Assembly: GCA_964398605.1 (NCBI GenBank)
Contig: CAYNNH010000002.1
Span: forward strand, 1-39,345
Direction: 5' to 3'
DNA: 39,345 bases
From: an uncultured Nitrososphaerota archaeon
Lineage (GTDB): Archaea > Thermoproteota > CAYNNH01
Part shown: piece by piece, positions 1 through 36,212 of the stretch
Layout: the number at the start of each line of letters is the position of its first letter
How positions within the stretch are numbered: the stretch's first letter is position 1
Notes under the pieces: model-generated
The model's database searches: none
What the model saw: the letters and a program-made list of their open reading frames with translations, nothing else
What the model was told of the DNA's origin: nothing
Translations under genes and position numbers: made by a program

Positions 1-261
1 CCGCTGATTTACTGGGAACACCGCCCTCTGCAGAAAGCCATCCTCTCGTTCTTGGCTAGGACCATGGAGCCGTCGAACCCCGAGTTGCTCGGCTACAGCA
101 AGCTCCTCTTCTTGGCGGATAGGGTCATCAAGAAGTGGACGGAAGAAGTGAGGCGAGCTTTGGGCCCCCTCGAAAGGCTCATCCTCATTCAGCCCGATCT
201 ACGAGAGTTTTTGTTGTACGCTCCATCATATAGGAGGAGGCGGAGGAGGTATGGAGGCTGA
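1..261 (+). CDS. C-terminal fragment of an upstream gene, possibly a NurA-like nuclease (5' truncated by the window edge)
   Basis: Frame 1 is open from base 1 (PLIYWEHRPLQKAILSFLARTMEPS...) to the TGA at 259-261. The segment LGYSKLLFLADRVIKKW resembles, from memory, the C-terminal GYP..L..A(H/D) motif of NurA. It overlaps the next gene by 11 nt. Confidence 0.4.
   Translation, partial: PLIYWEHRPLQKAILSFLARTMEPSNPELLGYSKLLFLADRVIKKWTEEVRRALGPLERLILIQPDLREFLLYAPSYRRRRRRYGG
232..249 (+). promoter_or_regulatory. Purine-rich multi-GGAGG tract, a Shine-Dalgarno-like ribosome-binding site for the HerA-like gene
   Basis: The tract aggaggaggcggaggagg ends 1 nt before the ATG at 251. It also encodes the RRRRRR tail of the upstream ORF. 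Confidence 0.45.
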
Positions 262-2095
262 AAAGCGTTATTTAACCGATCTCGATGGCAAGCTCGAGGG
301 CTACTTGGCTTACGTGAGGCAGACGAGGGGGGAGGGCGAGGGTGCCGCTTCCGTCTACCAGTGCGACGTAGAGGCGAGGTACAATCGGGAGCTCATGGCT
401 TTCTTGAGCGAAGGGATGCTCATCGCCGTCCCGAACTACCGGTCGAGGGGCGGGGAGAGGAGGTATACCCTCATGGAGGTCGTGGGCTTCTGGCCCGAGC
501 ACTACGGCCTAAAAACTACGGCGGAGAAAGAATATTATCCGTTTAGGGAGGCGCTTTACAAGGAGGCCGTAAAGGACTGGGAAAGGGAAGGGGCTGACGT
601 GACTAGGTTGAAGATAAGGGCCATCCCCATCAACTACGACCTCGTCTTTGGCGAAGAGGGAGCGAAGTTTGAGCGAGGGTGGTCCCAGCCCATTTTGGGG
701 GCGAAGGTCTTTCTCCTCACGGGAGAGGGGATGAGCTTCCTCTACAACTCCGCCATCTTGAAGAAAATGGGCATGAGGCCCGAGGACGAGAGGCTTTCTG
801 CGAAGGAAGCGAAGAGCAACCCCAGGTTGGGCACTTTGCGTTCCTTTGAGGAAGTCCCATTCCTCGTTTCCTTGGAGAAGCTCATACGCTACCACTGCGG
901 AATATTCGCCTTCACGGGAGGGGGGAAGAGCAACCTCGTCGCGAACATCGTAAGGCGCATCCTGTGGCACGTGGAAGAATCGAAGGTCGTCGTCTTCGAC
1001 ATCCAATCCGAGTACCTCGTCCTCCTGCTCGACCTCCTCTCGAACGAGGAAATACCCTCCCTCTTCGTGACCGATGAAGAAATTCCCGAGGACGAAGAGG
1101 AGGCCGTCGAGCGACTGTATGAGATCTCCGTGAAGCCCGACACGCTTTTGGACAGAGTTGGGGCGGACGCGATAAAGAAGGGTATTTCGAAGGTCATAGA
1201 GCTTGGAAGGGTAAACAAGTTCTTGCCTGGTTTGCGCACCAAGAGGCTTACGTACGGGGAGGTGATAAAGGAGATAGAGTCCTACGCGCTCTACGTGGCT
1301 AGGTGGCAGAAAGGACTGTTGGTCAGGAGGAGGGTCCGGGAATCCCTCGAGGCCTTCATGAGGGAACAGGGGAAGGGGACATCCTCCATCGTGGGGCCCG
1401 AGATAAACGAGTGGATAGCGAGCGTCGAGCGCTCCGTCAAGGAAATCGAGGGCGGTAAGCGCGGGAAGCTGAGCGAGCTCTTGGACATGCTCAGGGAGGT
1501 ATCCCAGAGCGAGAAGATCGTCCTGCCCGAGAAGTGCGTGGATGTCGACGCTTTGGTGGAGGAAATAACTAAGGGGGACAGGAGGCTCTTCATCCTCAAC
1601 ATCACGCGACCCGACATCATGCAGAGCGTCGCCCAGACGCTCTGCGAGGAGTTGCTGATGAGCAGGAAGCGGGAATTCCGCATTAAGCCCTATATCTTCT
1701 GCGTTTTCGACGAGGCTCAGAACTTCATCCCGAAGGTGACGGGGAAGGGGACGGAATCCCTTTGTTCGCTGGCGGTGGAGAACCTCATGAGGCAAGGGAG
1801 GAAGTACGGCCTAGGAGTTTGCATAGCTTCTCAAAGGATAGCTGGCCTCAACACGAGCGCTCTCCAGCAATTGCACACGATATTCCTAGGCATCTTGCCC
1901 AGACCTTATGATCGACTGGAGCTCCAGAGGAGCTTCGATGTCCCCTCCAACGTGGTGGACCTCACTCTCCAGTTGGGGACGGGCGAGTGGGTCGTCTGTA
2001 GCTACAACGCGACGGGCTTGCCGAACGTCCCCATCTTCATGAGGGCCGACAATAGCGAGGATGCCGTGGTCGAGGCCCTAAAGAGCCTAGCGTGA
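251..2095 (+). CDS. HerA/FtsK-superfamily (DUF87-type) ATPase
   Basis: 614-aa ORF. It has a barrel-like N-terminus, Walker A FAFTGGGKSNLV, Walker B FCVFDEAQNFIP, and the RQGRKYGLGVCIASQR block typical of HerA-like hexameric translocases. A strong SD lies upstream. Confidence 0.8.
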   Translation: MEAEKRYLTDLDGKLEGYLAYVRQTRGEGEGAASVYQCDVEARYNRELMAFLSEGMLIAVPNYRSRGGERRYTLMEVVGFWPEHYGLKTTAEKEYYPFREALYKEAVKDWEREGADVTRLKIRAIPINYDLVFGEEGAKFERGWSQPILGAKVFLLTGEGMSFLYNSAILKKMGMRPEDERLSAKEAKSNPRLGTLRSFEEVPFLVSLEKLIRYHCGIFAFTGGGKSNLVANIVRRILWHVEESKVVVFDIQSEYLVLLLDLLSNEEIPSLFVTDEEIPEDEEEAVERLYEISVKPDTLLDRVGADAIKKGISKVIELGRVNKFLPGLRTKRLTYGEVIKEIESYALYVARWQKGLLVRRRVRESLEAFMREQGKGTSSIVGPEINEWIASVERSVKEIEGGKRGKLSELLDMLREVSQSEKIVLPEKCVDVDALVEEITKGDRRLFILNITRPDIMQSVAQTLCEELLMSRKREFRIKPYIFCVFDEAQNFIPKVTGKGTESLCSLAVENLMRQGRKYGLGVCIASQRIAGLNTSALQQLHTIFLGILPRPYDRLELQRSFDVPSNVVDLTLQLGTGEWVVCSYNATGLPNVPIFMRADNSEDAVVEALKSLA

Positions 2096-3198
2096 TTGAT
2101 TTAGAAGGGGAGATCAAGGTAGGCGTTAGCAACTACATAAGCAGCCTTTGCCACTCCGTGCTTCGCTTAGAGCCTTACACCACGTGCTACTTCGATTGCG
2201 CTTATTGCTACGCTAGGTGGTACCGGGAAAAGGAAGCCTTTCGCGCCAAGAAAGGCCTGTTGCCCAAGCTCGAGAAGCTCTGGTCTAAGATGACGCATTT
2301 GGAAAGAGTTCCGCCCTTCAGGCTGTCGACTCTCATCGACCCCTTCCAGCCTGCCGAGAGGAATTGGAAACTTTCGCTCAGGATCTTGAGGTTGGCGAGG
2401 AAGTTTCGCATTCCGATCATCCTGAACACGAAGTCGACGCTTTTCTTGGAAGAGCCGTGGAAAAGTATGCTCGAAGAGCTTGCCTCCGATGGGCTTCTCG
2501 TCTTGCAGGTCTCCGTGCCTTTCTTGAGGGAAGACTTTAGGAGGGTCCTCGAGCCAAGGGCCGTGAGCGGGAAGGAGAGGCTTGAGGCGGTAGCGAAAGT
2601 GAGCGACCACGTTCCCTGCGTCATTAGGATGCAACCCATAATTCCCGGCATATTTGAGGAAAGCCTAGACGAACACGTCGAAGCCGTGAGAGATAGCGGC
2701 TCCAGGCACGTGATCGTCGAGTACTTGCGGGAAACTCCGCACGGCCTAGAGGAAATATACCACAAACTAGGGCGGAAATTGGAAAGGGGGATTTGGGAGG
2801 CGTACAGCATCAAGGGAGAAGGCTTGCTGAGGCCCACTCTATCCTATAGGCGCGGCTTATTGGCGGAGCTGAGGGGTAAGCTAGCCAAGTCGGGCATTTC
2901 GCTGGGGCTCTGCAAAGAAGGCTTATACGAGTTTCAGGACGGCAGGGATTGTTGTGGCTTCCGCTTCTTGGATCAAACGAGAGTAGGCTACAGGCTGACC
3001 CTCTACGAAGTGTGGAGGTGGGGCAACGGAGCTTTTGAGAAAGCGGCATCCGACCCCCTCATCCTTTGCGGGGGAAAGCTGGCGGCTTATCCTAACCCCG
3101 TTAGGAAGATTTTGAGGGCTCACGAGAGGAAGTTGATGAAAGTCCTAAGCGATAAGAACGTTCTTCAGAAAGTCTGCCCTTCTTTGGCGAGCGTTTAG
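2092..3198 (+). CDS. Radical SAM enzyme, SplB/COG1533 (DNA repair photolyase-like) family
   Basis: The GTG start overlaps the HerA-like stop (GTGA). It has a CX3CX2C cluster in LEPYTTCYFDCAYCYARW, plus IDPFQPAE, ILNTKS, VLEPRAVS and QPIIPGI blocks in the order seen in COG1533 proteins. Confidence 0.75.
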   Translation: MIDLEGEIKVGVSNYISSLCHSVLRLEPYTTCYFDCAYCYARWYREKEAFRAKKGLLPKLEKLWSKMTHLERVPPFRLSTLIDPFQPAERNWKLSLRILRLARKFRIPIILNTKSTLFLEEPWKSMLEELASDGLLVLQVSVPFLREDFRRVLEPRAVSGKERLEAVAKVSDHVPCVIRMQPIIPGIFEESLDEHVEAVRDSGSRHVIVEYLRETPHGLEEIYHKLGRKLERGIWEAYSIKGEGLLRPTLSYRRGLLAELRGKLAKSGISLGLCKEGLYEFQDGRDCCGFRFLDQTRVGYRLTLYEVWRWGNGAFEKAASDPLILCGGKLAAYPNPVRKILRAHERKLMKVLSDKNVLQKVCPSLASV

Positions 3199-3225: not shown

Positions 3226-4245
3226 GTGATACCGTCCATTATCATGGAAATATGGAGGATCCTCAAGCGCATCAAAAGGACCTTGTCGGGCGTCGCGTTG
3301 GTTTTGCTCTCGACCTTCGCGATCGGAGTTGTGGGCTTCCACTACATCGAGAAGTTGAGCTGGATGGACTCCGTTTACTTTACTTTCGTGACTTTGTCGA
3401 CCATAGGATTTGGCGACATAACGCCCGCTACGCTCTACGGCAAGATCCTCGTTATATTCGTCGCCACTTTGGGAATAGCTTCCTTCGCCACCGTCATAAC
3501 ATCCATCGTCCAGTCCATGGTGAGCGAGCGGATGAACAGGGTCTTAGGGCTCCTTAACCCCTACGCGAAAGGGCACGTGGTGGTGTGCGGTTGGAACGAG
3601 ACCGTGAAAGCGGCGATCAAGGAGTTGCTGGCCCTCACGGACAAGCAAATAGTCATCGTGGACGACAAGCTCGACCGAGTGCCCATCGATGATCCTCGCG
3701 TCGAGTTCGTGAAGGGCGATTACAAGGACCTGAGCGTCTTGAAGAGGGCGGGAGTCGACAAGGCTTCCGACGTGCTCGTGGCGACGGGCAACGATTCCGA
3801 GACCGTGCTCACCGTTCTGCAGGTGAGGGCGCTGAACAAGAACGTGCACATAGCGGCGGAGGCGAGGGGGAACATCAGCGAAGTTCTGAAGCAAGCGGGG
3901 GCGAACCACGTGATAAACAGTCTCACCTTCGGGGGACGGTTGCTCGCCATATCCGTCGTGGAGCCAGGGACGGCGTTCATATTCGATGATTTGAGCTCTA
4001 CGGGTGCTGGGAACGACGTTTATGAAGTGAAAGTGCCCAAGGAGTTCGTCGGGAGGAAGTTCGAGGATTTGGTGAAGGAATTCAAGGAGAAGACCAACGT
4101 CTTGCCGCTGGCTATTCGCAGGGGCAACGAGGTTCTCATCAACCCTTCCCTCGGGGAGGAAGTGACGGAGAAGGACTACATAGTCGTGGTAGCTACTCCC
4201 GAGGAGTTCAAGAAGTTGAAGGCGACGTGGAAAATCAAGGAATGA
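3226..4245 (+). CDS. Potassium channel with a C-terminal RCK/TrkA-N domain (MthK/Kch-like)
   Basis: It has two TM helices flanking the selectivity filter TLSTIGFGDITP. The Rossmann-like HVVVCGWNETVKAAIKEL begins the RCK domain. The start is either GTG 3226 or ATG 3244. Confidence 0.85.
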   Translation: MIPSIIMEIWRILKRIKRTLSGVALVLLSTFAIGVVGFHYIEKLSWMDSVYFTFVTLSTIGFGDITPATLYGKILVIFVATLGIASFATVITSIVQSMVSERMNRVLGLLNPYAKGHVVVCGWNETVKAAIKELLALTDKQIVIVDDKLDRVPIDDPRVEFVKGDYKDLSVLKRAGVDKASDVLVATGNDSETVLTVLQVRALNKNVHIAAEARGNISEVLKQAGANHVINSLTFGGRLLAISVVEPGTAFIFDDLSSTGAGNDVYEVKVPKEFVGRKFEDLVKEFKEKTNVLPLAIRRGNEVLINPSLGEEVTEKDYIVVVATPEEFKKLKATWKIKE

Positions 4246-5305
4246 GCTCCGTGGTGTTGTTGAAGGGCGGGTAGATCAGATCTTCCTCGCGTATAATCCC
4301 GCGCCTCAAGAGCCTCTTCACTTCGGGGACGACTTCCCTCAAAGCGTCCACGAGGGCCTTCGTCAGCGAGCACACCTTCCTGAAACCCTCCTCCCCCCAG
4401 AGCCTCTCCTTGTACGCGTACAGACACCTGCCCCCGCAGTAAGGGAAATAGGAACAGGAAGTGCATGGCTCGCCTATCTTGACCTTGCCGATCAAATCGT
4501 TAGGCTTGTGGCGGAAGATGTCCCCCAAATAAGCCCAAGGAGCGTCGAAGGCTATGGGGCAAGCGATCACTTTGCCGTTCGTCAAAATGGCTACCGAGTT
4601 GATGCCCGATTCGCAAGGAGGGGAGCTTATGGTTTTAAGCCCCAGCAGAGCGGAAATCACCGCTAGGAACGGGACCACGCCGAGGACTTTTCCTTCGGAC
4701 GCTTTTCTAAGCCACAGGTCTCTCAGCCTTCTCAAGCCCCTCACGTAAGAAGAAGCCCATTCGTCGAAGGAAAGCCAAGGCGGGCTCCAAATCACGTTCA
4801 GTTGCCAGTGCACGTGGTCGAAGAGCCCCAAGAATAGGAGGTGGACAACGTCCTCGTAGACATCGCTCCGCTCTGAAATCGTCATTCTAGCGATCAAATC
4901 TCCTCGAAAGCCCACCTTCCTCAGCCATTTCGCCGCTTCTAAGACTGCCCGGTAAACCCCTCTCCCCCTGTAATAATCGTTCACGTGCTCCCTTCCATCT
5001 ATGGAAAGCAGAACGGCCTCCATTCTGCGCCAGTATTCGTCGCCCAATTCCTTAACGAGCAAGCCATTTGTCTGAATCACGTACCTCGCCTCCATCGAAT
5101 CCATGACGGTTTCGATGAAGGAAGGGTTGAGGAGGGGCTCCCCGCCGTAGAAGGCGATGACCGGGTCGGGGTCGTCGCTTAGGAAGGACTTTAGGGCGTC
5201 GACGGAATAGCGCACTTCCCAAGGAACGAGGCTCGGCGGGATGCTTCCGCCGCAGTAAGTGCAACGGAGATTACACCTGCCCGTTGTGAAGACGAAGTAG
5301 AGCAT
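4235..5305 (-). CDS. Radical SAM / SPASM-domain enzyme (putative peptide- or protein-modifying maturase type)
   Basis: N-terminal TGRCNLRCTYCGG (CX3CX2C), GGEPLL, and a C-terminal Cys-rich CTSCSYFPYCGGRC SPASM-like motif. Its 3' end overlaps the K+ channel 3' end by 11 nt. Confidence 0.75.
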   Translation of the reverse strand: MLYFVFTTGRCNLRCTYCGGSIPPSLVPWEVRYSVDALKSFLSDDPDPVIAFYGGEPLLNPSFIETVMDSMEARYVIQTNGLLVKELGDEYWRRMEAVLLSIDGREHVNDYYRGRGVYRAVLEAAKWLRKVGFRGDLIARMTISERSDVYEDVVHLLFLGLFDHVHWQLNVIWSPPWLSFDEWASSYVRGLRRLRDLWLRKASEGKVLGVVPFLAVISALLGLKTISSPPCESGINSVAILTNGKVIACPIAFDAPWAYLGDIFRHKPNDLIGKVKIGEPCTSCSYFPYCGGRCLYAYKERLWGEEGFRKVCSLTKALVDALREVVPEVKRLLRRGIIREEDLIYPPFNNTTELIP

Positions 5306-5635
5306 TCAAGCCTCTGGCGCTTCGGGCTGGGGAGGAATTATGACTATTGGCCTCCCTTCGATTATCGCACGGACTACTTTCTTCCTCCCGCTCTCCAGAA
5401 GCCTCCAAACGGTCCCCCTAGAAACTCCCATCTGCTTGCCAGCTTCTTCTTGCGTCAGTCCCTCCAGATCGACCAAGCGCAAGGCTTCCAACTCGTCAGC
5501 CCTCAGCTCAATAGGGCGCAACTCGGGTGGGATAGGGGGAGGGATCGAGTGGGGGATCATGGCCCAAATCGGCGGACGGAACCTTATAAACCTAGGCTTG
5601 GGAGGCCTCCCCCGTCGGCGGCGGTGACGGTACAT
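5306..5635 (-). CDS. DUF134/UPF0251 family putative DNA-binding protein
   Basis: It has a basic N-terminus (GRPPKPRF.RF.P) and an HTH-like LTQEEAGKQMGVSRGTVWRLLESGRKKV, as in DUF134 proteins. It abuts the radical SAM start. Confidence 0.75.
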   Translation of the reverse strand: MYRHRRRRGRPPKPRFIRFRPPIWAMIPHSIPPPIPPELRPIELRADELEALRLVDLEGLTQEEAGKQMGVSRGTVWRLLESGRKKVVRAIIEGRPIVIIPPQPEAPEA

Positions 5636-6449
5636 CCTTTCTTTTGACTAATTCCGCGATTTTATCAACGATTTTGAAGAAGAGTTGGGCGACTTCTGAC
5701 TCAGGGCGGCGGTATACGTAGGGGGCTTCCTCGCCTATTTCCGGCACCAAGGGGATTCTCGCGAGTAGTAGAGTCCCCAATTCCCTCGCGATGGCCTCTC
5801 CTCCCCCCTCGCCAAACACTTGAGCCACGTAGCCGCAATTCGGGCACTTGAAGTAGCTCATGTTCTCGATGATCCCGAGCAAGGGAACGCCCAATTTCTG
5901 GACCATTATCGCCGCTTTCCTAGCGACCGACGCGGATACCTCTTGGGGCGTGGTAACTACGATCGCCCCATCGATGTCAGGTATGAGTTGCATCACGCTG
6001 AGGGGCTCGTCTCCCGTGCCAGGCGGACAGTCGACGAGGAAGAAGTCTAGGTCCCCCCACTCGGTCAGCGACAACACTTCCATGAGGAATTTGGCCTTGA
6101 GGGGGCCACGCCACACGAGGGGGGAGGATTCGTCCGGGAGTAGGTAAGCCATGGACATGGTTCTGATGGACAGAACCCCCTCGGGAGGGATTATCGTGTT
6201 GTCGGGGAGAACGGAGGGACGGGACGCGTCGGCTTCGAGCATTTTCGGTATGCAGGGCCCGTGCAGGTCGGCGTCGAACACCCCAACGCGATAACCCCTC
6301 ATGGCGAAGGAGCAAGCCAAATTGGCGACTATCGTGCTCTTCCCAACTCCACCTTTGCAACTTAGGATGATCAGTTTGTGTTTTACGTTTGAGAACCGTT
6401 CCTTTATGGCGTTGGAATAATCCTCATAGGTTTTTCTATTCTTGGGCAT
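5592..6449 (-). CDS. Mrp/NBP35/ApbC-family P-loop ATPase (Fe-S cluster carrier)
   Basis: It has the deviant Walker A ILSCKGGVGKSTIVANLA, DCPPGTGDE, and the CPNCG motif. It overlaps the DUF134 start by 44 nt. Confidence 0.85.
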   Translation of the reverse strand: MPKNRKTYEDYSNAIKERFSNVKHKLIILSCKGGVGKSTIVANLACSFAMRGYRVGVFDADLHGPCIPKMLEADASRPSVLPDNTIIPPEGVLSIRTMSMAYLLPDESSPLVWRGPLKAKFLMEVLSLTEWGDLDFFLVDCPPGTGDEPLSVMQLIPDIDGAIVVTTPQEVSASVARKAAIMVQKLGVPLLGIIENMSYFKCPNCGYVAQVFGEGGGEAIARELGTLLLARIPLVPEIGEEAPYVYRRPESEVAQLFFKIVDKIAELVKRKDVPSPPPTGEASQA

Positions 6450-13231: not shown

Positions 13232-13891
13232 TTGAGCGTGACAAAAGCTCGGGAAATACTGAAAAGGTTGGAGAAGAACCTCCCCTTGCCCGAATTTGGC
13301 GGGAAGAATTTCTCTCCTTTCGAGAGACTAATAGCGACGATCCTATCCCAGAACACGACCGATAAAAATGCCATTAGGGCTTTCGAAAACCTGAAGCGGA
13401 AAATGGTTATTAAGCCCGAAATTCTGGCGAAGGCAAGCGAGAAAGAAATAGCCAGTTTAATCAGGATAGCGGGTCTCCATAAGCAAAAAGCTAGGACGAT
13501 AAAAAGCGTCTCTAAGAGGATATTAGAAGAATTTGACGGCGATCTTACGCCCATTTTGTCCATGGAGAAAGAAAAAGCACGGGAAGTACTCATCTCTCTG
13601 CCGGGAATTGGAAGGAAGACGGCCGATGTCTTGCTGGCGTTTCACGGGAAGCACCCGACATTCCCCATCGACACCCACGTTAGAAGGGTATCGTTGCGCT
13701 TGGGGCTCGCCAAATCGAGGGACTACGAGAAAATGAGGAAGGAACTCGAATCCCAGTTCGACGAGAAGGATTTCCTGAAGGCGCACATGCTCCTCATAGC
13801 CCTAGGGAGGACGTACTGTAAGGCGAGGAAGCCCCTCTGCGAGGAGTGTTTCCTCAACGACTTATGTCCCTACGGCAGGAAAGCCAAATGA
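13232..13891 (+). CDS. nth: Endonuclease III (HhH-GPD DNA glycosylase/AP lyase with Fe-S cluster)
   Basis: LIATILSQNTTD, HhH LPGIGRKTADVLL, DTHVRRV, and the C-terminal CX6CX2CX5C (CKARKPLCEECFLNDLC). TTG start. Confidence 0.9.
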   Translation: MSVTKAREILKRLEKNLPLPEFGGKNFSPFERLIATILSQNTTDKNAIRAFENLKRKMVIKPEILAKASEKEIASLIRIAGLHKQKARTIKSVSKRILEEFDGDLTPILSMEKEKAREVLISLPGIGRKTADVLLAFHGKHPTFPIDTHVRRVSLRLGLAKSRDYEKMRKELESQFDEKDFLKAHMLLIALGRTYCKARKPLCEECFLNDLCPYGRKAK

Positions 13892-15810
13892 AGCGGTACA
13901 TGGAGTTTTTCCCTTACGAAACTGTCCGCCGCTACCAAGATAGGCTTATGGACCTCGTTTTCGAAGCAGCTTCGAGGGGAGAAACGGCGGTCATCGAGGG
14001 GGCTAACGGGCTTGGGAAAACGGTGGCGGTTCTTTCGGCGCTCCTACCCATCGCGAAGGAGGAAGGGCTCACGATCCTCTACCTAAGCAGGACGCACAAG
14101 CAGATGGACCGAGTGATCGAAGAGCTGAAGGAAATAAGGAAGAGGCATCGGGTGACGGGAGTTTCCATTAGGGGGAGAAGGGAGGTTTGCCTGCACCCCC
14201 TCATCCTCAAGCACGGAGGGGATGCCAAGTCGGTTATGGACGCCTGCAAGAACTTGAGGGCGGAGGGAAAGTGCAAGTACTACGAGAACCTGACGAGGGG
14301 AGGGGAAAGAATCGAAAGCGTGTTGCGGCTAATTGAGGATAGACCTCTTATGGCTTCGGAAATCGTGCAAGTGTGCTCAGACCTCGAAATTTGCCCCTAC
14401 GAGGTGTTGAAGGCGGCTCTGGGGAGCGTTGATGTCGTTTCGATGAGCTACCTCTACATGCTCGACCCCATCATAAGGTCGAGCTTCCTACGGTACTTCG
14501 ACAAGCCGAAGAGCGATTTCATCGTCGTCTTAGACGAAGCGCACAATTTGCCCGATGCCGCCCTCGAAGTAGGGAGCGATTCGTTATCCTTATTAAGCGT
14601 TGAGAAGGCGAGGAAGGAAGCGAAGGACAGGCCCCTATTGAAGCGACTGTGCGACTCCATCGAGGAATTCATGTTGAACGTTGCGAGGCGATTGGAAGGC
14701 GAGGACATCGAAGTGGATCCGTTAGGCTTCGTCGACTACGTCGAAAGGAAGTGCAGGATAGATGCCTATTCGCTCGCGGATGAAGCGCTCTCGGCGGGGA
14801 AGGAGATCAAAAGGGAACTCATTCGAGGGGGGAAGTTTCCGCGATCCTTCCTCTACAAATTGGGGAAGTTCATGTTCCTATGGTTGGAAACGGCGAACAG
14901 CGATGCGTACATTCACCTGCTTTCGGCTTACGAGCGGAGAGATGGTAGCGTATCCTACAAGCTGGAAGTCGTCGCCATGGATCCGCGGGGAATGATCGCG
15001 GACGCTTTCGAGGACGTGAGGAGCCTGATCTGCATTTCGGGGACCCTCCAGCCCATCGATGCTTATTGCGAGATATGCGGCATAAAGAAGAGCAAGTACT
15101 CGGAAGCTTTGCCATCGCCTTTCGCGAGGGATCAGATCGTTTGCTTAGTGTGTAAGGGCGTGTCAACAAGCTTAGAACGGAGGGAACCTGAGATGTACAA
15201 GAAGATGGTGGCGAGGATCGCGGAAGCAGTCGAGTACTCGCCTTGGAACGTCGGGATTTTCACGGCTTCCTACGAAGTGTTGGAGGGATTGCTGGAGGCG
15301 GGAATCGAGGACGTTATCGATGTCCCCCTGCTCGTGGAGCGGAAGCACATGACGTCGAGGGAAAACGACAAGCTCATTCAAGAGTTCAAGAAGCACGCCG
15401 ACGAAGGTAGGAAGGCGGTTTTGTTGGGGGTTCAGGGAGGGAGGAACAGCGAGGGGGAGGATTACCCGGGCAAGTACATGTGCACCAGTATCGTGGTCGG
15501 CGTCCCGTACGCGAAGCCGACGGTACGCGTCAAGGCCCAGATCCGGTACTACGAGAAGCAATTCCCGGGGAGGGGGAAGGAGTACGGGTACATCATGCCA
15601 GCCCTTAGAAAAGCGTCGCAAGCAGCTGGAAGGCCTGTCAGGAAGTTAGACGACCGCGGAGCGGTCATTTTATTGGACTCGAGGTTCGCAACAGCCTATT
15701 GCAGGAGGTACTTGCCGAAGTGGTTGAGGAGGAACTTCCGCGTCTTGCCCGATAGGGAAGGTGAAATAGCGAAGCAACTGGTCTTGTTCTTCGGTTTTAA
15801 AACGGACTGA
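13888..15810 (+). CDS. xpd: XPD/Rad3-family Fe-S DNA helicase
   Basis: The ATG at 13888 overlaps the nth stop (ATGA). It has FPYE..R.YQ, Walker A EGANGLGKT, four Cys of the Fe-S domain (CLHP, ACKNL, GKCKYY, ICPYE), and DEAH as VLDEAHNL. Confidence 0.9.
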   Translation: MKRYMEFFPYETVRRYQDRLMDLVFEAASRGETAVIEGANGLGKTVAVLSALLPIAKEEGLTILYLSRTHKQMDRVIEELKEIRKRHRVTGVSIRGRREVCLHPLILKHGGDAKSVMDACKNLRAEGKCKYYENLTRGGERIESVLRLIEDRPLMASEIVQVCSDLEICPYEVLKAALGSVDVVSMSYLYMLDPIIRSSFLRYFDKPKSDFIVVLDEAHNLPDAALEVGSDSLSLLSVEKARKEAKDRPLLKRLCDSIEEFMLNVARRLEGEDIEVDPLGFVDYVERKCRIDAYSLADEALSAGKEIKRELIRGGKFPRSFLYKLGKFMFLWLETANSDAYIHLLSAYERRDGSVSYKLEVVAMDPRGMIADAFEDVRSLICISGTLQPIDAYCEICGIKKSKYSEALPSPFARDQIVCLVCKGVSTSLERREPEMYKKMVARIAEAVEYSPWNVGIFTASYEVLEGLLEAGIEDVIDVPLLVERKHMTSRENDKLIQEFKKHADEGRKAVLLGVQGGRNSEGEDYPGKYMCTSIVVGVPYAKPTVRVKAQIRYYEKQFPGRGKEYGYIMPALRKASQAAGRPVRKLDDRGAVILLDSRFATAYCRRYLPKWLRRNFRVLPDREGEIAKQLVLFFGFKTD

Positions 15811-17056: not shown

Positions 17057-17686
17057 ATGCTAACGACGTCTTGCGGGGGCTTAGATCGGATCCTAGGGGG
17101 AGGACTAGAAGATGGGAAAGTTTACTTGTTGTACGGGAAAGCGGGAACGGGGAAGACGATCCTCTCGTTGAAAATCGCCTGTAATGCGTCTAAGCTCGGA
17201 AACGTCGTTTATCTCGACCCGGGAAGGAACGTGCACCCCGGCGCGTTGTGGGAGGCTTTCGCGTTAGGCGGAGGGAATGCCGAGCACATCCAAATAGTAG
17301 TCCCCGAAACCTTCGAAGATCAAACGAGGTTTCTTGAAAAGACCGTAGGAGCGAGGTTGGCCGCCCTCGTAGTCGACGACATATGCGCTTTGTATTCCCA
17401 GAAGTTGATCGAGAGGGGGCCGTTTGACCTGAGCAAGGAACTCAACAGGCAGATGGCTCTGATCAAGGAAATATCGAAGAAAGCGCCTTGTCCGGCTTTC
17501 GTCACCAGCCACGTACACACGACCCTTCAAGGAGTTGTGGAACCTCCCTCTTACCGCATTTTAAGGCACTGGTCGGATTTCGTCCTCAAAATCGAGAAGT
17601 TACGTAGGGTCATCGAGATAAGCGTCGAGAAGCCGTACAAGACCTTCGTACGGCTGAGTCTGGAAGAACTAACGTGGGAAGCGTGA
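17057..17686 (+). CDS. RecA-superfamily ATPase paralog (RadB/aRadC/KaiC-like)
   Basis: GGLDRILGGGLEDGKVYLLYGKAGTGKT (Walker A) and Walker B LVVDD. It is short (209 aa). Confidence 0.7.
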   Translation: MLTTSCGGLDRILGGGLEDGKVYLLYGKAGTGKTILSLKIACNASKLGNVVYLDPGRNVHPGALWEAFALGGGNAEHIQIVVPETFEDQTRFLEKTVGARLAALVVDDICALYSQKLIERGPFDLSKELNRQMALIKEISKKAPCPAFVTSHVHTTLQGVVEPPSYRILRHWSDFVLKIEKLRRVIEISVEKPYKTFVRLSLEELTWEA

Positions 17687-18186
17687 TTGACTTCCTCATC
17701 GCCCTAGGCTGGGCGATTTGGTACGTCCTTCCCGCCTACATAGCGAACGCCATGCCTACTATCCTCGGAGGTGGCGTTCCTATTGATGGAGGGAAGAAAA
17801 TGGGCGATGGTCGACCAGTTTTCGGTTCCCACAAGACGGTGAGGGGCTTCGGTGTGGGCGTACTCTTCGGGAGCCTTGTCGGTTTCGTTCAAGCCGCGAC
17901 TTTAGGCCCCATTTTGAGAATCTGCTCAGGAATTCTGCAGGGCTTGGGGGCCATGTTAGGGGACCTCGCTGGATCCTTCATCAAAAGGAGGAAGGGTATT
18001 AAGCCGGGAGACCCGCTCCCCCTTTTAGACCAGCTCGATTTCGTCCTCGGAGCCGTCGCTCTTTCCTACTTGGTGGAACCCTTCAGTCTTATCACGTTTC
18101 TCTTGATCCTGTCCATAACACCCCCACTTCACGTGCTAACCAACGTAATCGCCTACTTGCTCAAGATAAAAGAAAAGCCTTGGTAA
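17683..18186 (+). CDS. carS: CDP-archaeol synthase (DUF46 family)
   Basis: LPAYIANAMPTILGGG.PID.G....DGRPVFGSHKTVRGF matches the CarS signature, and the protein is multi-TM. The probable GTG at 17683 overlaps the upstream stop (GTGA). The alternative is GTG 17674. Confidence 0.8.
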   Translation: MIDFLIALGWAIWYVLPAYIANAMPTILGGGVPIDGGKKMGDGRPVFGSHKTVRGFGVGVLFGSLVGFVQAATLGPILRICSGILQGLGAMLGDLAGSFIKRRKGIKPGDPLPLLDQLDFVLGAVALSYLVEPFSLITFLLILSITPPLHVLTNVIAYLLKIKEKPW

Positions 18187-20703: not shown

Positions 20704-21156
20704 ATGGAATACCGGTCAAATAAAAGAATGGCTAGAAGGCTGAGGAGGATTCGATCCCGTTTCAAGAGACTATTTAGGTTGAGGCCTGGGTGGAAGGAGA
20801 GGTTGAGGCCTTACCTCATCATTGCTTTCGTTTGCCTCTTCTTGTTCATAGCGGGAGGGGGACTGTACGATATAACCGAGAGGCCGGGGGCCTTAGTGGG
20901 CTACCGCGGAGGCGGGTTGCCTTCCTTCGTTGCCCTTTATTCGCTGGGCGATCAAACGCTAACGGAAAGCATATTCAGCATGGTCCTCCTCGGCATAGGC
21001 GTTTTAGGTTGTTGGATAGCCTACGAGGGAACTAGGTACGTCTACGACGTGCGGAAGGGGACTATGTACATCATCATAGGCGTAGTTCTCATCGTCGTAG
21101 CAGTCGTTACGCTGATGTACATCCTGCGCATCAAGCTGTACGGTCCTTATGCGTAG
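20704..21156 (+). CDS. 3-TM membrane protein resembling the eukaryotic OSTC/DC2 (Ost3/6 membrane-domain) oligosaccharyltransferase subunit
   Basis: It has a basic N-terminal tail and three hydrophobic helices. The by-eye alignment to human OSTC (from memory) is ITGGIIYDVIVEPPSVG vs [36 protein letters not shown]..GGLGF vs [24 protein letters not shown], and the C-terminal MRMKLPGY vs LRIKLYGPY. The length is the same (149 vs 150 aa). Confidence 0.55.
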   Translation: [150 protein letters not shown]

Positions 21157-21724
21157 TTCTCTCCGCCTAGAAAAAGCTATCAAAAACTGCCGAGCGTGCT
21201 CCTTCGTCGACAAGCCCTTCGTCACGTACGGCGCTTACAGGAAGTGGCTACCAGAAAAGGTCAGGGTGCTCGCAGTAGGCGAATCCCCTCCTCCCGGCAG
21301 GAAGCGCTCCTTCTTCTACAACCTCGCCCAGTTTGATAGACTGAGGCTATCCATGAGGCTCATAACGGGGAAGCGAGAGGAAGAGCTCTTGCGGTGGCTC
21401 AAGAGAAGGGGGATTTTCATAACGGCGGCGGTGAAGTGCAGGCCTCCGAAGCCTTCCGACATAACCTCCATGCGTAAGAAGTGCGAGCGATGGCTCCGCA
21501 TGGAAATCGAGTTGCTGAGGCCGGAGAGGATCGTAGCCATGGGGAGGACGGCTGTTCGCTCTTTGTGCACTGTACTAGGCTTAAGAGAGCCGGATAGCGT
21601 TAGGGATTTGGTGGAAGTCGAAAAAAGAGGTTATAGAATTGCCTTTGGACCTCACCCCAATTACGTCTTCAGGTTCAGACGGGATATCTCGAAGGATTAC
21701 CTTAGGATTCTAATCTTCGAATAG
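21149..21724 (+). CDS. Uracil-DNA glycosylase superfamily protein (divergent family 4/5-like, Fe-S type)
   Basis: CRAC near the N-terminus, VLAVGESPPPG in place of the GEAPG motif, ITAAVKCRPP, KKCERWL, IVAMG and GPHPNY. It overlaps the upstream gene by 8 nt. Confidence 0.65.
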   Translation: MRSSLRLEKAIKNCRACSFVDKPFVTYGAYRKWLPEKVRVLAVGESPPPGRKRSFFYNLAQFDRLRLSMRLITGKREEELLRWLKRRGIFITAAVKCRPPKPSDITSMRKKCERWLRMEIELLRPERIVAMGRTAVRSLCTVLGLREPDSVRDLVEVEKRGYRIAFGPHPNYVFRFRRDISKDYLRILIFE

Positions 21725-29784: not shown

Positions 29785-30059
29785 CTAACCACCTCCGCCC
29801 TGCTCAGCCTTATGCCCTTGCGGTGGAGGATATGGCCGCACTCCGAGCACTTAAGCTTCAGCACGACCTTCTTCGTCGTTTTCGCCGTCCTTCTCAGCTT
29901 CGGGAACTTCTGGCCGCCGTATCCCTTCTTTTCCATCGCGTGGTGCCTCGCTCCCTTGGCGAGAGCCCTCTCCTTGCCCCTCTTGTATATGCTGACCTTG
30001 TGGACCGTGTGCTTCCTACACCGGGGGCAGTAAGTCCGGATGGTTTTCGGGAACTTCAA
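29781..30059 (-). CDS. rpl44e: 50S ribosomal protein L44e (eL42)
   Basis: [25 protein letters not shown]...LKCSECGH. The TTG start overlaps the GINS stop (TTGA). Confidence 0.9.
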
Positions 30060-30640
30060 AGCTCAATTATCCTCGCCTTGCCGCTCCTTATAAGCGAATC
30101 GGCATTCCTCACGGGGATCGAAGCTACGTCGCCCTTCTTATAAGGCCCGTAGACCTTCGAGTCGGTCCCCAAGAAGGCGGGGACATCTTCGAGGAAGCGA
30201 ACAGAGACCTTCCCTTTGCGGATCATCTCCCCGATGTCCCCCGAGAAGCCGTGCAGAATCCTGCTAATGATGGACTCGCTTATGGGCCTAGCGGAAACGA
30301 GCAGGTCGTATATGACGAACTCTTCTTCGGTGAGGCAAACCGTGGGTACCGTACCTCCTTCACAAACTTTCTGCAGGATCTTCCTCAGCCTCGTCGATAT
30401 GAGTTCCCTCGCCATGAAGCGGGCTCTTTTCAGCTCCTCCTCGAGCAAGCGGTATTGGATCGAGCTCCTATCGAGGAGTTTCTTCTTTTCCTGAAGCTCC
30501 TTGAAGTACTCCGCTAGCCTCTTGTAAAAATCCCTAGAAAGCGTGATGAGTTCTTTCGAGGCCCTCTCTTGGTCGGTCAGCTTCCTCAGCTCATCGTACA
30601 ACTTCCGCGACCCCCGAGCATATGAGGAAAACCGCGACAT
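30056..30640 (-). CDS. GINS subunit, Gins51/Gins15 type (helical A domain then beta-rich B domain)
   Basis: A helical N-terminal half (LTLSRDFYKRLAEYFKEL...) and a C-terminal B domain (KVSVRFLEDVPAFLGTDSKVYGPYKKGDVASIPVRNADSLIRSGKARIIE). It lies directly downstream of priS, as in Sulfolobus. The start is uncertain (ATG 30640, TTG 30601, or track 30688); all candidates are inside the priS 3' end. Confidence 0.65.
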   Translation of the reverse strand: MSRFSSYARGSRKLYDELRKLTDQERASKELITLSRDFYKRLAEYFKELQEKKKLLDRSSIQYRLLEEELKRARFMARELISTRLRKILQKVCEGGTVPTVCLTEEEFVIYDLLVSARPISESIISRILHGFSGDIGEMIRKGKVSVRFLEDVPAFLGTDSKVYGPYKKGDVASIPVRNADSLIRSGKARIIEL

Positions 30641-31757
30641 CTTCGGGCAGTTCCACCACTTCGTTTTCGAAGGGGCCGAAGCGCTCATCCCTCAACCTCA
30701 CTTCCGGGGAGGACGTTACCGAAACGGTCACGGTTTCGGAGTGGGGCAAGACGGGGGACTCCTTGAGCGGGTCGAACGTATCGATGTTTTCGACGGGGCA
30801 CACCAGCAAACCGGTTCCTCCGTGCAGGGAACCGGGCAACCTTATGAGGCGGGCAGTGTCCGTCGTGACGAGGGTATCTATGTGTATGGATGCCTTCTCT
30901 TTCGCCAATTCGAGCAGGTATTTGACGTCCTTCTTCTTGATGGACCTCTTCACGTACACGGATTGGCCAGCGAGTATCCTCTCTATGAGGTCTTCTTGGC
31001 GTTTCCTAACTTCTTCCGCGAGGGTTGGGTCGGGGATTTGGGAGGGATCCTCCACGATGGAGAGAAGGGCCTCCACCAACCTCCTGTTCCAACCCCCGTC
31101 CTCTAGGCGGGGCCACCTCCGGATTTCGTAGCCAACGCCGGTGAAATAATCGGCGATTTCCGCCCTCGCCCTCCCGTCCAGCTGGAGGACAGCCTTTGAA
31201 TCTACGTGGATGTGATACCCCCTCCTCCCCGAGAAGTAAACCTTTATTTCCTTCGAGGAGAAGCCGAAATCCCACTCCAGAACTTCTAACAGGCGCGTAG
31301 TTTCCTCCTTGGCTGCGGCCAAGCATTCATCGCATATCCACTTCTGCTCCTTCAGCGTCTTAGACCCGCAGGAAGGGCACTCTTTCGGGGCCGCACCCTT
31401 CCCGCTCTTCCCGCACGCCAAGCACGTCCACTTGTCGTGGAGCTCCTTGCAGGATGTGGCGATGTGGTCGGCGTCTATGTCGAAGACGAGCTCAGCTCCC
31501 CGCCAGCCTTTCTCTTCCATGGGGAGGGTAGGGCGCTCGTAGTAGGCGGAGGAGTAGTACACGTGGGCGGGAACTTCCCTCCTTATGTAGGCCATGAGTT
31601 CGTCCAGCGTCGAGAAAGATCGGTGCCGCACCATTCCGCCCGAGAAGGGCATGAAAGCGAACTCTCTGTGGGGGATGTCTTTCGGCGGGATCACGCTGTG
31701 CTCGCGGTAATAGCGGGCGAACCTCGAAAAGACGAAGGAGAGGCTCCTCTCGTTCAT
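30591..31757 (-). CDS. priS: DNA primase small (catalytic) subunit PriS
   Basis: It has the catalytic ELVFDIDADH, the Zn motif CLACG...CPSCG, and SGRRGYHIHV. Confidence 0.9.
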   Translation of the reverse strand: MNERSLSFVFSRFARYYREHSVIPPKDIPHREFAFMPFSGGMVRHRSFSTLDELMAYIRREVPAHVYYSSAYYERPTLPMEEKGWRGAELVFDIDADHIATSCKELHDKWTCLACGKSGKGAAPKECPSCGSKTLKEQKWICDECLAAAKEETTRLLEVLEWDFGFSSKEIKVYFSGRRGYHIHVDSKAVLQLDGRARAEIADYFTGVGYEIRRWPRLEDGGWNRRLVEALLSIVEDPSQIPDPTLAEEVRKRQEDLIERILAGQSVYVKRSIKKKDVKYLLELAKEKASIHIDTLVTTDTARLIRLPGSLHGGTGLLVCPVENIDTFDPLKESPVLPHSETVTVSVTSSPEVRLRDERFGPFENEVVELPEDVAVFLICSGVAEVVR

Positions 31758-32743
31758 TTCAGCATGGATAGCTTCTTACGGTAGTACTGGAGGGGATTCT
31801 TCACGACTCGGCAGAGGTCGTCAGGGTTCACGCACAAACCGTTGGTCCTCATCTTGTCGCAAGAAGGACACATGTACTTCGTCCCGGACCCCCTCATCCC
31901 CGCGATGTGCTCCACCTGATACCTACAGAGCCTTTCGTTGAAATCGGGCAATTTGGAGAAAAACGAAACCACCTCGTCAATGGACGTGCCCACTTTCAAC
32001 AGGAAGGCGGTGAAGGAAAACCTGCCGAAGTGGGGGACGTGCTTGCCGTCCTTCAGCTTCTCCCATATGTCTTTCATGCAGGGAGGGAACGCTTCCTCCC
32101 TGATTTCCCCTATTGGGGAAAATTCGGGCCGCTTCGCTTCCTTCGCGAGGACTTCCTTAATTTCCTCGACGAGTTGGGAGAGCTCCGGGGGAGGGGTTTC
32201 CTTCCCTTTAACTTGGGAGAGGACGATATCGTACGAGGGTTCCTGGAGGAATCTCGCTATCTCCTTGCGGCTCAGGCTTACCTTACCGCGGAACAGTTGC
32301 CTGTTGACGAGCTTCCAACGCCCGCTACCGATTCGGGGAGCGTAGCTGAGGTATTGGTGGAAGGGCACGAAAACCTCCTCTTTTTCTCCCACGGATATGT
32401 CCACCCCAACCGCCTTCGAGAACCAAATGAGGGTGCTCACGTCCTCCCCTTCGAGCAAATTCGAGACTTTCTTCGCTTCCGCTAGGGCAAATCTGCGCCT
32501 AAGGAACTCGTCGTCGACGCACCTCACGAGGAAGACCGATAGCACGTAGGAGAGGAACACTTCCCTAGGATCCTCGAGCTCGTCCCAGCCTACCCTGCCG
32601 TACTTAATGGCGGAGAGAAGTCGTTCCCTCGCTTTCTCGACGACGATGGAGGAGAGTATGTCCGCTTCGCCTATGCCTTCCCGCTTAAGGCGTTCCTTCG
32701 AGAAGAAGAGAAAGGGGTACTTCGACCAACGCAGGTCTATCAT
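31754..32743 (-). CDS. priL: DNA primase large subunit PriL
   Basis: FPPCMKDIWEKLKDGKHVPHFGRFSFTAFLLKVG and the C-terminal Cys ligands of the Fe-S domain (CPSC...C). ATGA junctions on both sides. Confidence 0.85.
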   Translation of the reverse strand: MIDLRWSKYPFLFFSKERLKREGIGEADILSSIVVEKARERLLSAIKYGRVGWDELEDPREVFLSYVLSVFLVRCVDDEFLRRRFALAEAKKVSNLLEGEDVSTLIWFSKAVGVDISVGEKEEVFVPFHQYLSYAPRIGSGRWKLVNRQLFRGKVSLSRKEIARFLQEPSYDIVLSQVKGKETPPPELSQLVEEIKEVLAKEAKRPEFSPIGEIREEAFPPCMKDIWEKLKDGKHVPHFGRFSFTAFLLKVGTSIDEVVSFFSKLPDFNERLCRYQVEHIAGMRGSGTKYMCPSCDKMRTNGLCVNPDDLCRVVKNPLQYYRKKLSMLK

Positions 32744-33504
32744 TCAGTGGCTCTCGGCGCAAGGTAGTACGTGAGGGTGCCCGGCTGGGGGAGGACGAAG
32801 TCGAGCTTGATGGGCATGTTGGTGGAGAAGTGAAGGGTGACTTCGTCGGAAACGGCGGAAGCCGCCTTTACCATGTCGAGGAGGTACTTGACGTTATAGG
32901 AAGCCTTGCACGTTTCTTTCGCTTCTAGGCTCAACAGAGCTTCGTCTCCTGGCTTGAAACTTATCTCCACGTTGGCAAGCTTGCTCTCGGATGATATCTT
33001 GAACTCGTTCGGGGAAGCGTATAAGGTGGCCGCGTCCCCGACAGCGGACACGCTCGCCAGAGCGTCCTTGAGGCTACTTACTTGGAGCGTTGCCTTCGCG
33101 TTGAACTCGACCTTCGGGCGGCGGAGCTCTTCTTCGACGGAGGGCTCTAGCGGGCGCAAGCGGTACGTGACTCGGTACCTCCCCATGAGCTTCAGCGCAA
33201 CGTAATCCTTTTCGAGGGCGAACGAGAGGGAGTCCGACGTTTTTGCCTTCTTCAGGAGGCTGAGCACGTCGTCCAACGAGACGGTGAGCTTCACTTCTTG
33301 GGGGCAGTTCAGCTCGGTGAAGGCCTCCTTCTCGAGCTTGAAGTCGACCATCGCGACCCTCGACTGGTCGAGCATCCTCAATTCGAGGCCATCAGGCGAC
33401 AGCTTGAACGTCGCTTCGTCCGTGATAACCCTAATGGTTTGGAGGAGATTTCTGAAGAACCGAGCGTTCGATATTACGAAGCTAGGGGGGACTTCTTCGG
33501 ACAT
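32740..33504 (-). CDS. pcn: PCNA sliding clamp
   Basis: 254 aa with a two-domain repeat pattern (ARFFRNLLQTIRVITDEATFKLSPDGLELRMLDQSRVAMVDF...). It lies directly upstream of priL. Confidence 0.85.
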   Translation of the reverse strand: MSEEVPPSFVISNARFFRNLLQTIRVITDEATFKLSPDGLELRMLDQSRVAMVDFKLEKEAFTELNCPQEVKLTVSLDDVLSLLKKAKTSDSLSFALEKDYVALKLMGRYRVTYRLRPLEPSVEEELRRPKVEFNAKATLQVSSLKDALASVSAVGDAATLYASPNEFKISSESKLANVEISFKPGDEALLSLEAKETCKASYNVKYLLDMVKAASAVSDEVTLHFSTNMPIKLDFVLPQPGTLTYYLAPRATE

Positions 33505-34184: not shown

Positions 34185-34736
34185 TTAGATTTCCCCGACA
34201 GGGATCTCACCGTAGTTGGGTGAGATGGGTTTCTTAAATTCCTTACCACACCTCGGGCACCGAAGCTTCTTCCCCAGCGCTTCCAGTATTTCACCGCACT
34301 CGTTGCAGTAGGAAAGCAGAACCCCGCATTCCGAGCAGTTCTTCCAAGAAAGCTGTACGGGTATTTTGCTCGATTTCACCACCGCCTTGATGATCTCGCC
34401 AGGCTTCAGCACATCGTACATGTTCCTCGTCGGGACTTCCGACGCTCTCAGAAAAGCCGTGAAGGTAGAGCGGGGCACCTGCTCGTTGAGGAAGAGAATT
34501 TTCGTCTCAGCCATGCTCGTGCTCACGGACAGGACGAGGGCTACGGCCCTGTCCCCCTTCCTCGGCAGGACGATGGCCTTGGTGGGCTGGACGATCACCC
34601 TCCTCTGCTCGAGGTCGACGAGGGTCCGCCCCCAGAAGGAGGAGTATATCGATCCCCCATCGACGAAGGCCCCGGGACCTACCTCGTACTCCTCCACAAC
34701 GCCTATCTTCTCGCCCGGAGTCACGCATTTCTTCAC
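34185..34736 (-). CDS. csl4: Exosome RNA-binding subunit Csl4 (S1 + Zn ribbon)
   Basis: VTPGEKIGVVEEYEVGPG, an S1-like core, and the C-terminal CSECG...CNECG...CPRCG. The probable GTG at 34736 overlaps the dph2 stop (GTGA). The track start is 34757. Confidence 0.8.
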   Translation of the reverse strand: MKKCVTPGEKIGVVEEYEVGPGAFVDGGSIYSSFWGRTLVDLEQRRVIVQPTKAIVLPRKGDRAVALVLSVSTSMAETKILFLNEQVPRSTFTAFLRASEVPTRNMYDVLKPGEIIKAVVKSSKIPVQLSWKNCSECGVLLSYCNECGEILEALGKKLRCPRCGKEFKKPISPNYGEIPVGEI

Positions 34737-35713
34737 TGAGGGTAGAGGGACTCCCATTCGAGCTCACCTAGGACAACTAAGAATTCCTCGGGCGTCAATA
34801 TGGGCTTATTGATGGGAAGCCCATCTATCGCGAGGCGCGGGCACGCCACGCTCACGTACGCGTCGCACCCGAAATCGAGGAGGGGTTCGCTGAGGACTAT
34901 GTCGGCCGATAGAAGGATGGAATTCACGCCGGCTTCCTTCGCCTTCGAGTACAAGCTCTCGGCGAGGGGGAGGTTCTTCTGGCCGGGCTTAATGCCCGCT
35001 ATGATGCCCACGCAAGACGCTTCCGATGCCTTCGCGATCTTCGCGTAACGCTCCATGAGCAGGCGCTTCCGAGCGTTGGGCCCGTATTCCTTGAGCCTCC
35101 CCTCGAAAAAGTCCAGCTGGAAGATGGGCTTCGTTACGTGCAATAAGAGGCCCCTCGCATGAAACTCCCCCGATGAGAGGAGGAGGAAGGCCTCCACTCC
35201 ATCCTGCACCGAAAGGGCGGATCCGTAATCGCACCCGAGCACTTGCCCATCCTTCAAGAGCTTGTGGAAAGGTTTCCCCACGAGGGTTTCTTTGCCCAAT
35301 TCCCTCAGGAGTTGGGCGGTTTTGGGCAGTAAGTCGAGGAAGTAGTCGATGGACAAGAGGCCTATCCTTGAGTGGGGCAATTTCGCCAATTCGTCGGCGA
35401 CGGAAAAGTCCGTTTCGATTTTGAGGGGGACGTACACGACGGGCAAGGGACTTTTCTCAACGAGGGGACCGTGCCCCACGTGGACGATGAGGTCGGCGCC
35501 TATCGAGGTCGCTTCCCAGAAGCCCACGTCGCAACCTCCGTAGCAAGGGCTCGCCGAGAAGAACGGGAGGATCCCCAAGGATTCCAGGAATTCCTTAAGT
35601 TGCTTGGCCTTCGGTTTTAGTCCTTCTGGAAGTTGGACGAGGACTTTCTTCGGTTTCCTTCGCTCGATTTCGCGTTTTAGAAATGAGAGATCTATGGAAA
35701 GGTTAGTCCTCAA
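34733..35713 (-). CDS. dph2: Diphthamide biosynthesis enzyme Dph2 (radical SAM-type ACP transferase)
   Basis: KKVLVQLPEGLKPKAKQL, GGCD, and ADLIVHVGH. Length is 326 aa. Confidence 0.8.
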   Translation of the reverse strand: MRTNLSIDLSFLKREIERRKPKKVLVQLPEGLKPKAKQLKEFLESLGILPFFSASPCYGGCDVGFWEATSIGADLIVHVGHGPLVEKSPLPVVYVPLKIETDFSVADELAKLPHSRIGLLSIDYFLDLLPKTAQLLRELGKETLVGKPFHKLLKDGQVLGCDYGSALSVQDGVEAFLLLSSGEFHARGLLLHVTKPIFQLDFFEGRLKEYGPNARKRLLMERYAKIAKASEASCVGIIAGIKPGQKNLPLAESLYSKAKEAGVNSILLSADIVLSEPLLDFGCDAYVSVACPRLAIDGLPINKPILTPEEFLVVLGELEWESLYPQ

Positions 35714-36203: not shown

Positions 36204-36212
36204 GGCCCGACA

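Follow-up and report, generated by a model that had tools for sequence, protein, structure and literature searches.

The 39,345-nucleotide stretch analysed here (the window; contig CAYNNH010000002.1 of assembly GCA_964398605.1, forward strand, from an uncultured Nitrososphaerota archaeon) opens with three same-strand genes whose ends overlap, encoding in turn a NurA-like protein, a HerA-type ATPase and a radical S-adenosylmethionine (SAM) protein. The locus raises the question whether this coupling marks a three-component DNA-processing system, as proposed in a preliminary description of the sequence, or a two-gene module with an independent gene behind it. The second answer is strongly favoured: bases 1-2095 most likely hold a translationally coupled two-gene module, a divergent and paralogous form of the archaeal NurA–HerA machinery for DNA-end processing, to which the radical-SAM gene is a neighbour and not a component. 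The first gene is represented by its 3′ end only, an open reading frame (ORF) of the NurA family in frame 1 of the plus strand (1-261, 86 codons), open from base 1 and terminated by TGA at 259-261. The second (251-2095, plus strand) starts with ATG at 251, ends with TGA at 2093-2095 and encodes a 614-residue P-loop ATPase of the HerA family within the FtsK–HerA superfamily. The third, the radical-SAM gene (2092-3198, plus strand), encodes 368 residues from a GTG at 2092, and its stop codon ends at 3198. The NurA-like ORF overlaps herA by 11 nt, and herA shares the 4 nt GTGA with the radical-SAM gene on the same strand; the GTG start is supported by 30 homologs, whose alignments begin no more than about 10-15 residues from position 1.

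The middle protein matches the Pfam DUF87/HerA central domain (PF01935) with 60.5 bits at a cut-off of 23.2 (E 3.3e-16). It is also recognised by the NCBIfam HerA equivalog models NF040937 and NF040819 at E-values of about 1e-15, scoring 55.0 bits (cut-off 800) with the former and 54.8 bits (cut-off 970) with the latter. Fifteen PADLOC models match it, 14 of which are HerA models, the best being PDLC01055 (“Type III coevolved”, 1.5e-31), and a profile of the clade retrieves HerA chains from the PDB (4e-16 to 1e-7). The alignments to the NCBIfam and PADLOC HerA models begin at about residues 132-142. Three motifs on the plus strand are conserved in a 20-sequence alignment: the Walker A motif FTGGGKSN (911-934; T222, G223, G225, K226, S227 and N228 invariant), the Walker B motif CVFDEAQNF (1700-1726; D487, E488, A489, Q490 and F492 invariant) and the arginine block RQGRKYGLGVCIASQR (RQGRKYG...QR, 1790-1837; R514, G516, R517, K518, Y519, G520, Q528 and R529 invariant). 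From what is known of HerA and FtsK, we take this last block to be a candidate arginine-finger/sensor region. Given these DUF87/HerA matches and invariant motifs, and scores far under the equivalog cut-offs, the protein is assigned to the HerA superfamily and not regarded as orthologous to the characterised repair HerA. The preliminary description proved accurate as to gene layout, overlapping junctions and the presence of all quoted motifs. Walker A lies exactly where it was placed, Walker B is present one base upstream of the position given (about 1701-1727), and the spacing between the two, put at about 260 residues, amounts to about 256. Its HerA/FtsK-type call is borne out by the DUF87 match above cut-off, the HerA models and the PDB HerA chains. 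A CedD/Ted-type role in DNA import was considered on account of an NCBIfam CedD match (1.4e-7); it was rejected as general P-loop similarity because the neighbourhoods show no recurring genes for membrane partners.

The identity of the upstream partner emerges from its full-length relatives. The 86-residue fragment aligns to the C-termini of proteins of about 630 residues encoded upstream of HerA homologs, with 20 invariant positions that include P27, E28, G31, L36, F37, A39, D40 and K44. It carries the C-terminal motif of this family, PE..G..LF.AD..K.W, and contains the GYSKLLFLAD string on which a NurA-like character had tentatively been suggested. The fragment alone gives no match to Pfam NurA (PF09376); of 25 full-length relatives, 16 match this model at E <= 0.01 (best 4.7e-7), and the reference member reaches 19.6 bits at a cut-off of 21. 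Some members of this large family carry a precomputed PF09376 match, and the names assigned by NCBI include NurA (one protein) and “winged helix-turn-helix” (two). An AlphaFold2 (AF2) model of one relative, P0122, was obtained with a mean predicted local distance difference test score (pLDDT) of 63 and a predicted template modelling score (pTM) of 0.69. In a Foldseek search of the PDB, ranks 1-10 were all NurA, from T. kodakarensis, P. furiosus and S. solfataricus (probabilities 0.98-1.0); the matches include the NurA chain of the T. kodakarensis HerA–NurA complex, and TM1739 appears at rank 13. The central insert of the model gives further fold matches to winged helices of the MarR/IclR type. 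The C-terminal alignment, the Pfam NurA matches of the relatives and the NurA-only top ten of fold matches therefore support the tentative assignment. Five invariant aspartates of the partner family (D75, D194, D388, D424 and D577 in P0122 numbering, the last corresponding to D40 of the fragment) are candidate acidic catalytic residues. The missing 5′ part of the gene was sought in other records; the only other contig record (L001) starts at the same base, and a JGI contig with an identical radical-SAM gene (L094) carries just 43 bp of upstream sequence.

The pairing of the two genes is conserved. Relatives of the window ATPase number 413 among species-representative genomes, and the best 80 were examined with 6-kb flanks; they belong mostly to Bathyarchaeia, with some Asgard lineages and Aenigmatarchaeota. 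In 76 of the 80 loci, the gene immediately preceding herA on its own strand encodes the NurA-like partner; of the four exceptions, two offer no upstream sequence. The same arrangement was seen in loci L002, L003 and L005, and the overlapping junction also occurs among relatives. Conversely, a homolog of the window radical-SAM protein was found within about 6 kb in none of the 80 loci (tblastn, 1e-5), 67 of which include at least 1.2 kb of downstream sequence. The closest HerA relative (L002, 47% identity) has the pair and lacks the radical-SAM gene, and the same is true of L003 and L005. Clustering of the neighbouring ORFs across the 80 loci gave no conserved third gene beside the pair, only synteny at the level of lineages. 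Subunits of a 2-oxoacid:ferredoxin oxidoreductase lie downstream on the opposite strand in 36 loci (e.g. L009, 7847-10951) and a PadR regulator recurs in 17; the other recurrent neighbours identified are a GNAT and a radical-SAM protein. The recurrence of the ferredoxin oxidoreductase and PadR genes indicates stable chromosomal synteny within Bathyarchaeia.

A matching result is obtained from the side of the radical-SAM gene. Neither HerA nor the NurA-like partner was found near its homologs in any of 79 non-self metagenomic loci, 45 of which have at least 2 kb of upstream sequence. Five look-ups of the closest homologs (49-57% identity) likewise led to contigs without a HerA or NurA neighbour. 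Encoded beside the gene are, instead, XPF/ERCC4, thioredoxin together with a DEAD/MZB helicase, a SPASM radical-SAM protein, Cbf5 or aldehyde ferredoxin oxidoreductase. When the neighbouring ORFs of 83 radical-SAM loci were clustered, no family occurred in more than 11 of them and the contexts were heterogeneous; a second radical-SAM enzyme, ABC transporter ATPases, aldehyde ferredoxin oxidoreductase, ThiI and FeoB recur. The radical-SAM gene is thus a member of a stand-alone, widely distributed archaeal family in variable context. As its adjacency to herA is not conserved outside this genome, the proposed NurA–HerA–radical-SAM system finds no support. No association of HerA with a radical-SAM enzyme was found in the literature searched, nor any account of this HerA clade in Bathyarchaeota; the former agrees with the missing link in the genomic data.

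Some of the radical-SAM contexts may be recorded in their own right. The commonest neighbour, present in 11 of the 83 loci (e.g. L111, 3198-4967), is a divergently oriented second radical-SAM gene whose product has an N-terminal zinc ribbon of the HMPTM type. SPASM radical-SAM genes weakly similar (29% identity) to the one at 4235-5305 of the window stand beside the COG1533-like gene in L091, L097 and L100. In L092, the closest radical-SAM homolog (57% identity) is immediately preceded by a truncated ORF of 415 residues (2-1249), which matches no Pfam model and resembles neither HerA nor NurA.

The overlapping junctions have to be read against the base rate of such junctions in the window. Judged from ORF coordinates, about two-thirds of its same-strand neighbouring gene pairs overlap or lie no more than 30 nt apart, where the ORF calls take the most upstream start and some overlaps may be overestimated. 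Unrelated genes overlap or nearly abut in the RadB-like/CDP-archaeol synthase pair (17057-18186) and in the Csl4/Dph2/L10e/KsgA/DUF655 run (34185-37579), and the GINS/PriS/PriL/PCNA junctions (30056-33504) show 4-nt overlaps. In such a compact housekeeping stretch, where unrelated genes overlap, an overlap is no evidence for a system. A K+ channel gene (Ion_trans_2 with TrkA_N/TrkA_C; 3226-4245, plus strand) begins 27 nt past the radical-SAM stop as the fourth gene of the same tight run, and by the same logic it would also belong to the “system”; it is context only and part of none. In line with this, the radical-SAM gene stands behind herA only in the window lineage and is probably co-transcribed with it simply as a result of end-to-end gene packing. 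The alternative is a three-gene functional unit restricted to the window lineage, in which a NurA–HerA threading nuclease would deliver DNA to a radical-SAM enzyme resembling spore photoproduct lyase (SPL), and a lesion or modification would be reversed or installed. Such a unit could be read from the 4-nt same-strand overlap of herA and the radical-SAM gene, from the lack, on reading by eye, of a TATA-like box within 60 nt upstream of the GTG at 2092, and from SPL being the closest fold of the radical-SAM protein (see below). It is opposed by the absence of the adjacency from all 80 HerA-clade loci, from all 79 metagenomic radical-SAM loci, from the nearest HerA relative and from the contigs of the five look-ups, as well as by unrelated overlaps being the norm in the window and by the K+ channel gene in the same run. 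We consider it very improbable.

What the third gene encodes can be described in some detail. Its product matches Pfam PF04055 (37.8 bits, cut-off 29.5) and the PA0069 family model NF033668 (98.8 bits, cut-off 360, E 3e-28); the latter is matched by all 30 members of the window family. The match to the Rv2578c family is significant (E 8e-16) and below the family cut-off. We take the PA0069 and Rv2578c families to be equivalent to COG1533. An alignment of 30 sequences, the members of which are 34-57% identical to the window protein, shows seven invariant cysteines, all encoded on the plus strand. Three of these form the CX3CX2C cluster motif C32, C36 and C39 in CYFDCAYCYARW (Cys codons within 2185-2208). 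The other four are C20 (2149-2151) and the CKEG ... DCCG cysteines C274, C287 and C288 (2911-2955; codons 2911-2913 and 2950-2955). The alignment suggests these four as candidate ligands of an auxiliary Fe–S cluster; no such cluster is known in SPL. The IDPFQP, ILNTKS, LEPRA and QPIIPGI blocks are present as well. With a pLDDT of 95, the AF2 model of the protein is very confident. The closest fold in the PDB is that of spore photoproduct lyase 4fhf (E 9e-8, template modelling (TM) scores 0.54/0.58, 16% identity); the folds of SkfB and of the pyruvate formate-lyase (PFL)-activating enzyme score almost as well. No SPL model occurs among the NCBIfam matches at E <= 1, and neither the single sequence nor the 30-sequence profile gave an SPL sequence match in the PDB. 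The earlier call of a COG1533/SplB-type enzyme stands in part: the Radical_SAM domain, the distant PA0069/Rv2578c kinship and SPL as best fold match agree with it, whereas by sequence the enzyme is no genuine SplB. Compared with SplB (PDB 4fhc/4fhf) and PA0069/Rv2578c, the window enzyme shares the CX3CX2C core, has SPL as best fold match and is significantly homologous to PA0069/Rv2578c, yet it stays under the PA0069 cut-off, shows no SPL sequence match and has four extra invariant cysteines. On these sequence comparisons, the gene product is assigned to a family related to, and distinct from, PA0069. One could imagine that, in one lineage, the nurA-herA operon captured an SPL-like radical-SAM enzyme, perhaps equipped with an auxiliary Fe–S cluster, which would cooperate with the translocase/nuclease, for example by acting on the DNA unwound by it in lesion reversal or modification; we give this scenario hardly any credence.

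The preference for a paralogous NurA–HerA module with an independent radical-SAM neighbour has to be held against several points that weigh the other way. The GTGA overlap makes co-translation of the radical-SAM gene with herA likely, so that a functional link peculiar to this lineage retains a small probability. The relatives compared are distant (at most 47% identity for HerA and 59% for the radical-SAM protein) and include no truly close genome. SPL as best fold and the occasional location of homologs beside XPF or a helicase make a DNA-related role of the radical-SAM enzyme possible. As for the partner, the window holds only 86 of its residues and the model of its relative is only moderate (pLDDT 63, TM scores 0.2-0.36). 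Further, its profile retrieves no NurA from the PDB sequences with HMMER, only weak matches to helix-turn-helix (HTH) proteins of the Lrp/AsnC type (E about 0.5).

A further possibility is that the NurA-like/HerA-like pair serves as an anti-virus or anti-plasmid defence module. The best single model match of the ATPase, PDLC01055, is a CRISPR-type-III-linked model, the immediate neighbours of the pair are type I-B cas genes in L003 and a BrxC/BrxD-like ATPase in L002, and CRISPR-linked NurA–HerA paralogs are documented: in Thermoproteales, a genome holds at least three NurA–HerA paralog pairs, one of which is CRISPR-associated (PMC3396285). With the NurA–Csm6–HerA clusters of that order the window pair has in common its probable place among additional pairs beyond the canonical repair pair, and its best PADLOC match to a “Type III coevolved” HerA. 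Unlike them, the window genes have no csm6/CARF gene between or next to them, and the window, a core replication/translation region, is free of cas genes and of any CRISPR-like repeat array; cas genes adjoin the pair in only one of the three individually inspected loci. The partner family gave no consistent model match in a PADLOC scan. The HerA clade is absent from a phage collection and has only distant matches, confined to the Walker B region, in a plasmid collection, both collections being biased towards bacteria. Moreover, 36 of the 80 loci show housekeeping synteny with ferredoxin oxidoreductase genes. Defence is judged an unlikely function of the pair.

Two of the loci mentioned above merit a separate record. 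In the Bathyarchaeia locus L003 (10400-13796), the pair abuts a type I-B CRISPR adaptation/cas3 block comprising Cas4, Cas2, Cas1, Cas6b and Cas3. In L002 (4392-8885), the genes after the pair are those for Vut_1, DUF6364 and a BrxC/BrxD-like ATPase, then an uncharacterised gene and a TGT-family gene, a set that might represent a DNA-modification island of the 7-deazaguanine type or a defence island.

The pair could also be the orthologous HerA–NurA machine for double-strand-break resection in these lineages, highly diverged and not an extra paralog. Its wide distribution, with 413 relatives among the species-representative genomes, and its occurrence as a single conserved pair with housekeeping synteny would fit. 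The archaeal HerA–NurA systems of S. solfataricus, P. furiosus and T. kodakarensis (PDB 4d2i, 3tal, 9x1m) share with it the nurA-herA order with overlapping junctions, the DUF87/HerA ATPase with Walker A, Walker B and conserved arginines, and the RNase-H-like NurA fold of the partner. Against orthology stand the scores of about 55 bits where the HerA equivalog models require 800-970, far below these cut-offs, and the differing architecture of the partner, which has about 630 residues with a winged-helix insert where the solved NurA chains have 319-433 residues. Its sequence similarity to solved NurA is also undetectable by HMMER. Furthermore, no Mre11/Rad50-type family appears among the identified recurrent neighbours of the 80 loci, although no search aimed at Mre11/Rad50 was made. 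Highly diverged orthology is hence possible but on balance doubtful, and a paralogous module is preferred.

For this paralogous module, complex formation, nuclease and translocase activity and co-transcription are inferred. By analogy with the solved HerA–NurA complexes, a NurA dimer would dock on a HerA hexamer, and DNA would thread through the nuclease into the channel of the ATPase. ATP-driven translocation would feed the strands to the RNase-H-like nuclease sites, so coupling translocation with digestion. The winged-helix insert of the NurA-like partner probably provides additional DNA binding or regulation.

The remainder of the window is of interest mainly as genomic background. It contains genes for Mrp/NUBPL, tRNA-Leu, EndoIII, XPD, Clp1, a RadB-like protein, CDP-archaeol synthase, GcvT, CofE, UDG, NAD kinase, IleRS, AglB, eIF2-alpha, GINS, PriS, PriL, PCNA, Csl4, Dph2, L10e, KsgA and SRP54. 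This housekeeping region also holds several repair genes at scattered positions. Among them, an endonuclease III gene (HhH-GPD with Fe–S) shares about 46 nt with the beginning of a same-strand XPD-type helicase gene (13232-15810), and a UDG-superfamily gene lies at 21149-21724. A radical-SAM gene of the SPASM type (4235-5305, minus strand) is convergent with the K+ channel gene; it is preceded on the minus strand by a small arginine-rich, putative HTH ORF (5306-5635) and a gene for an Fe–S-delivery ATPase of the Mrp/NUBPL type (5592-6449).

In summary, the three-gene coupling is the adjacency of one genome in a tightly packed chromosome and matters little as a system. Of modest interest in its own right is the large NurA–HerA clade with a winged-helix NurA, which occurs, mostly unnamed in databases, in hundreds of genomes of Bathyarchaeia, Asgard and other archaea, and no description of which was found in the literature searched. 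The clade, with its long NurA, may represent a DNA-processing machine of its own, inherited vertically in Bathyarchaeia and Asgard archaea and conceivably serving either repair or defence. It adds to the known multiplicity of HerA–NurA paralogs, whose tasks may be split between repair, CRISPR and defence. The uncharacterised radical-SAM family, for its part, is a reasonable biochemical target for anaerobic, light-independent radical chemistry on DNA or nucleotides, because it is widespread, has a very confident SPL-like model and carries four extra invariant cysteines.

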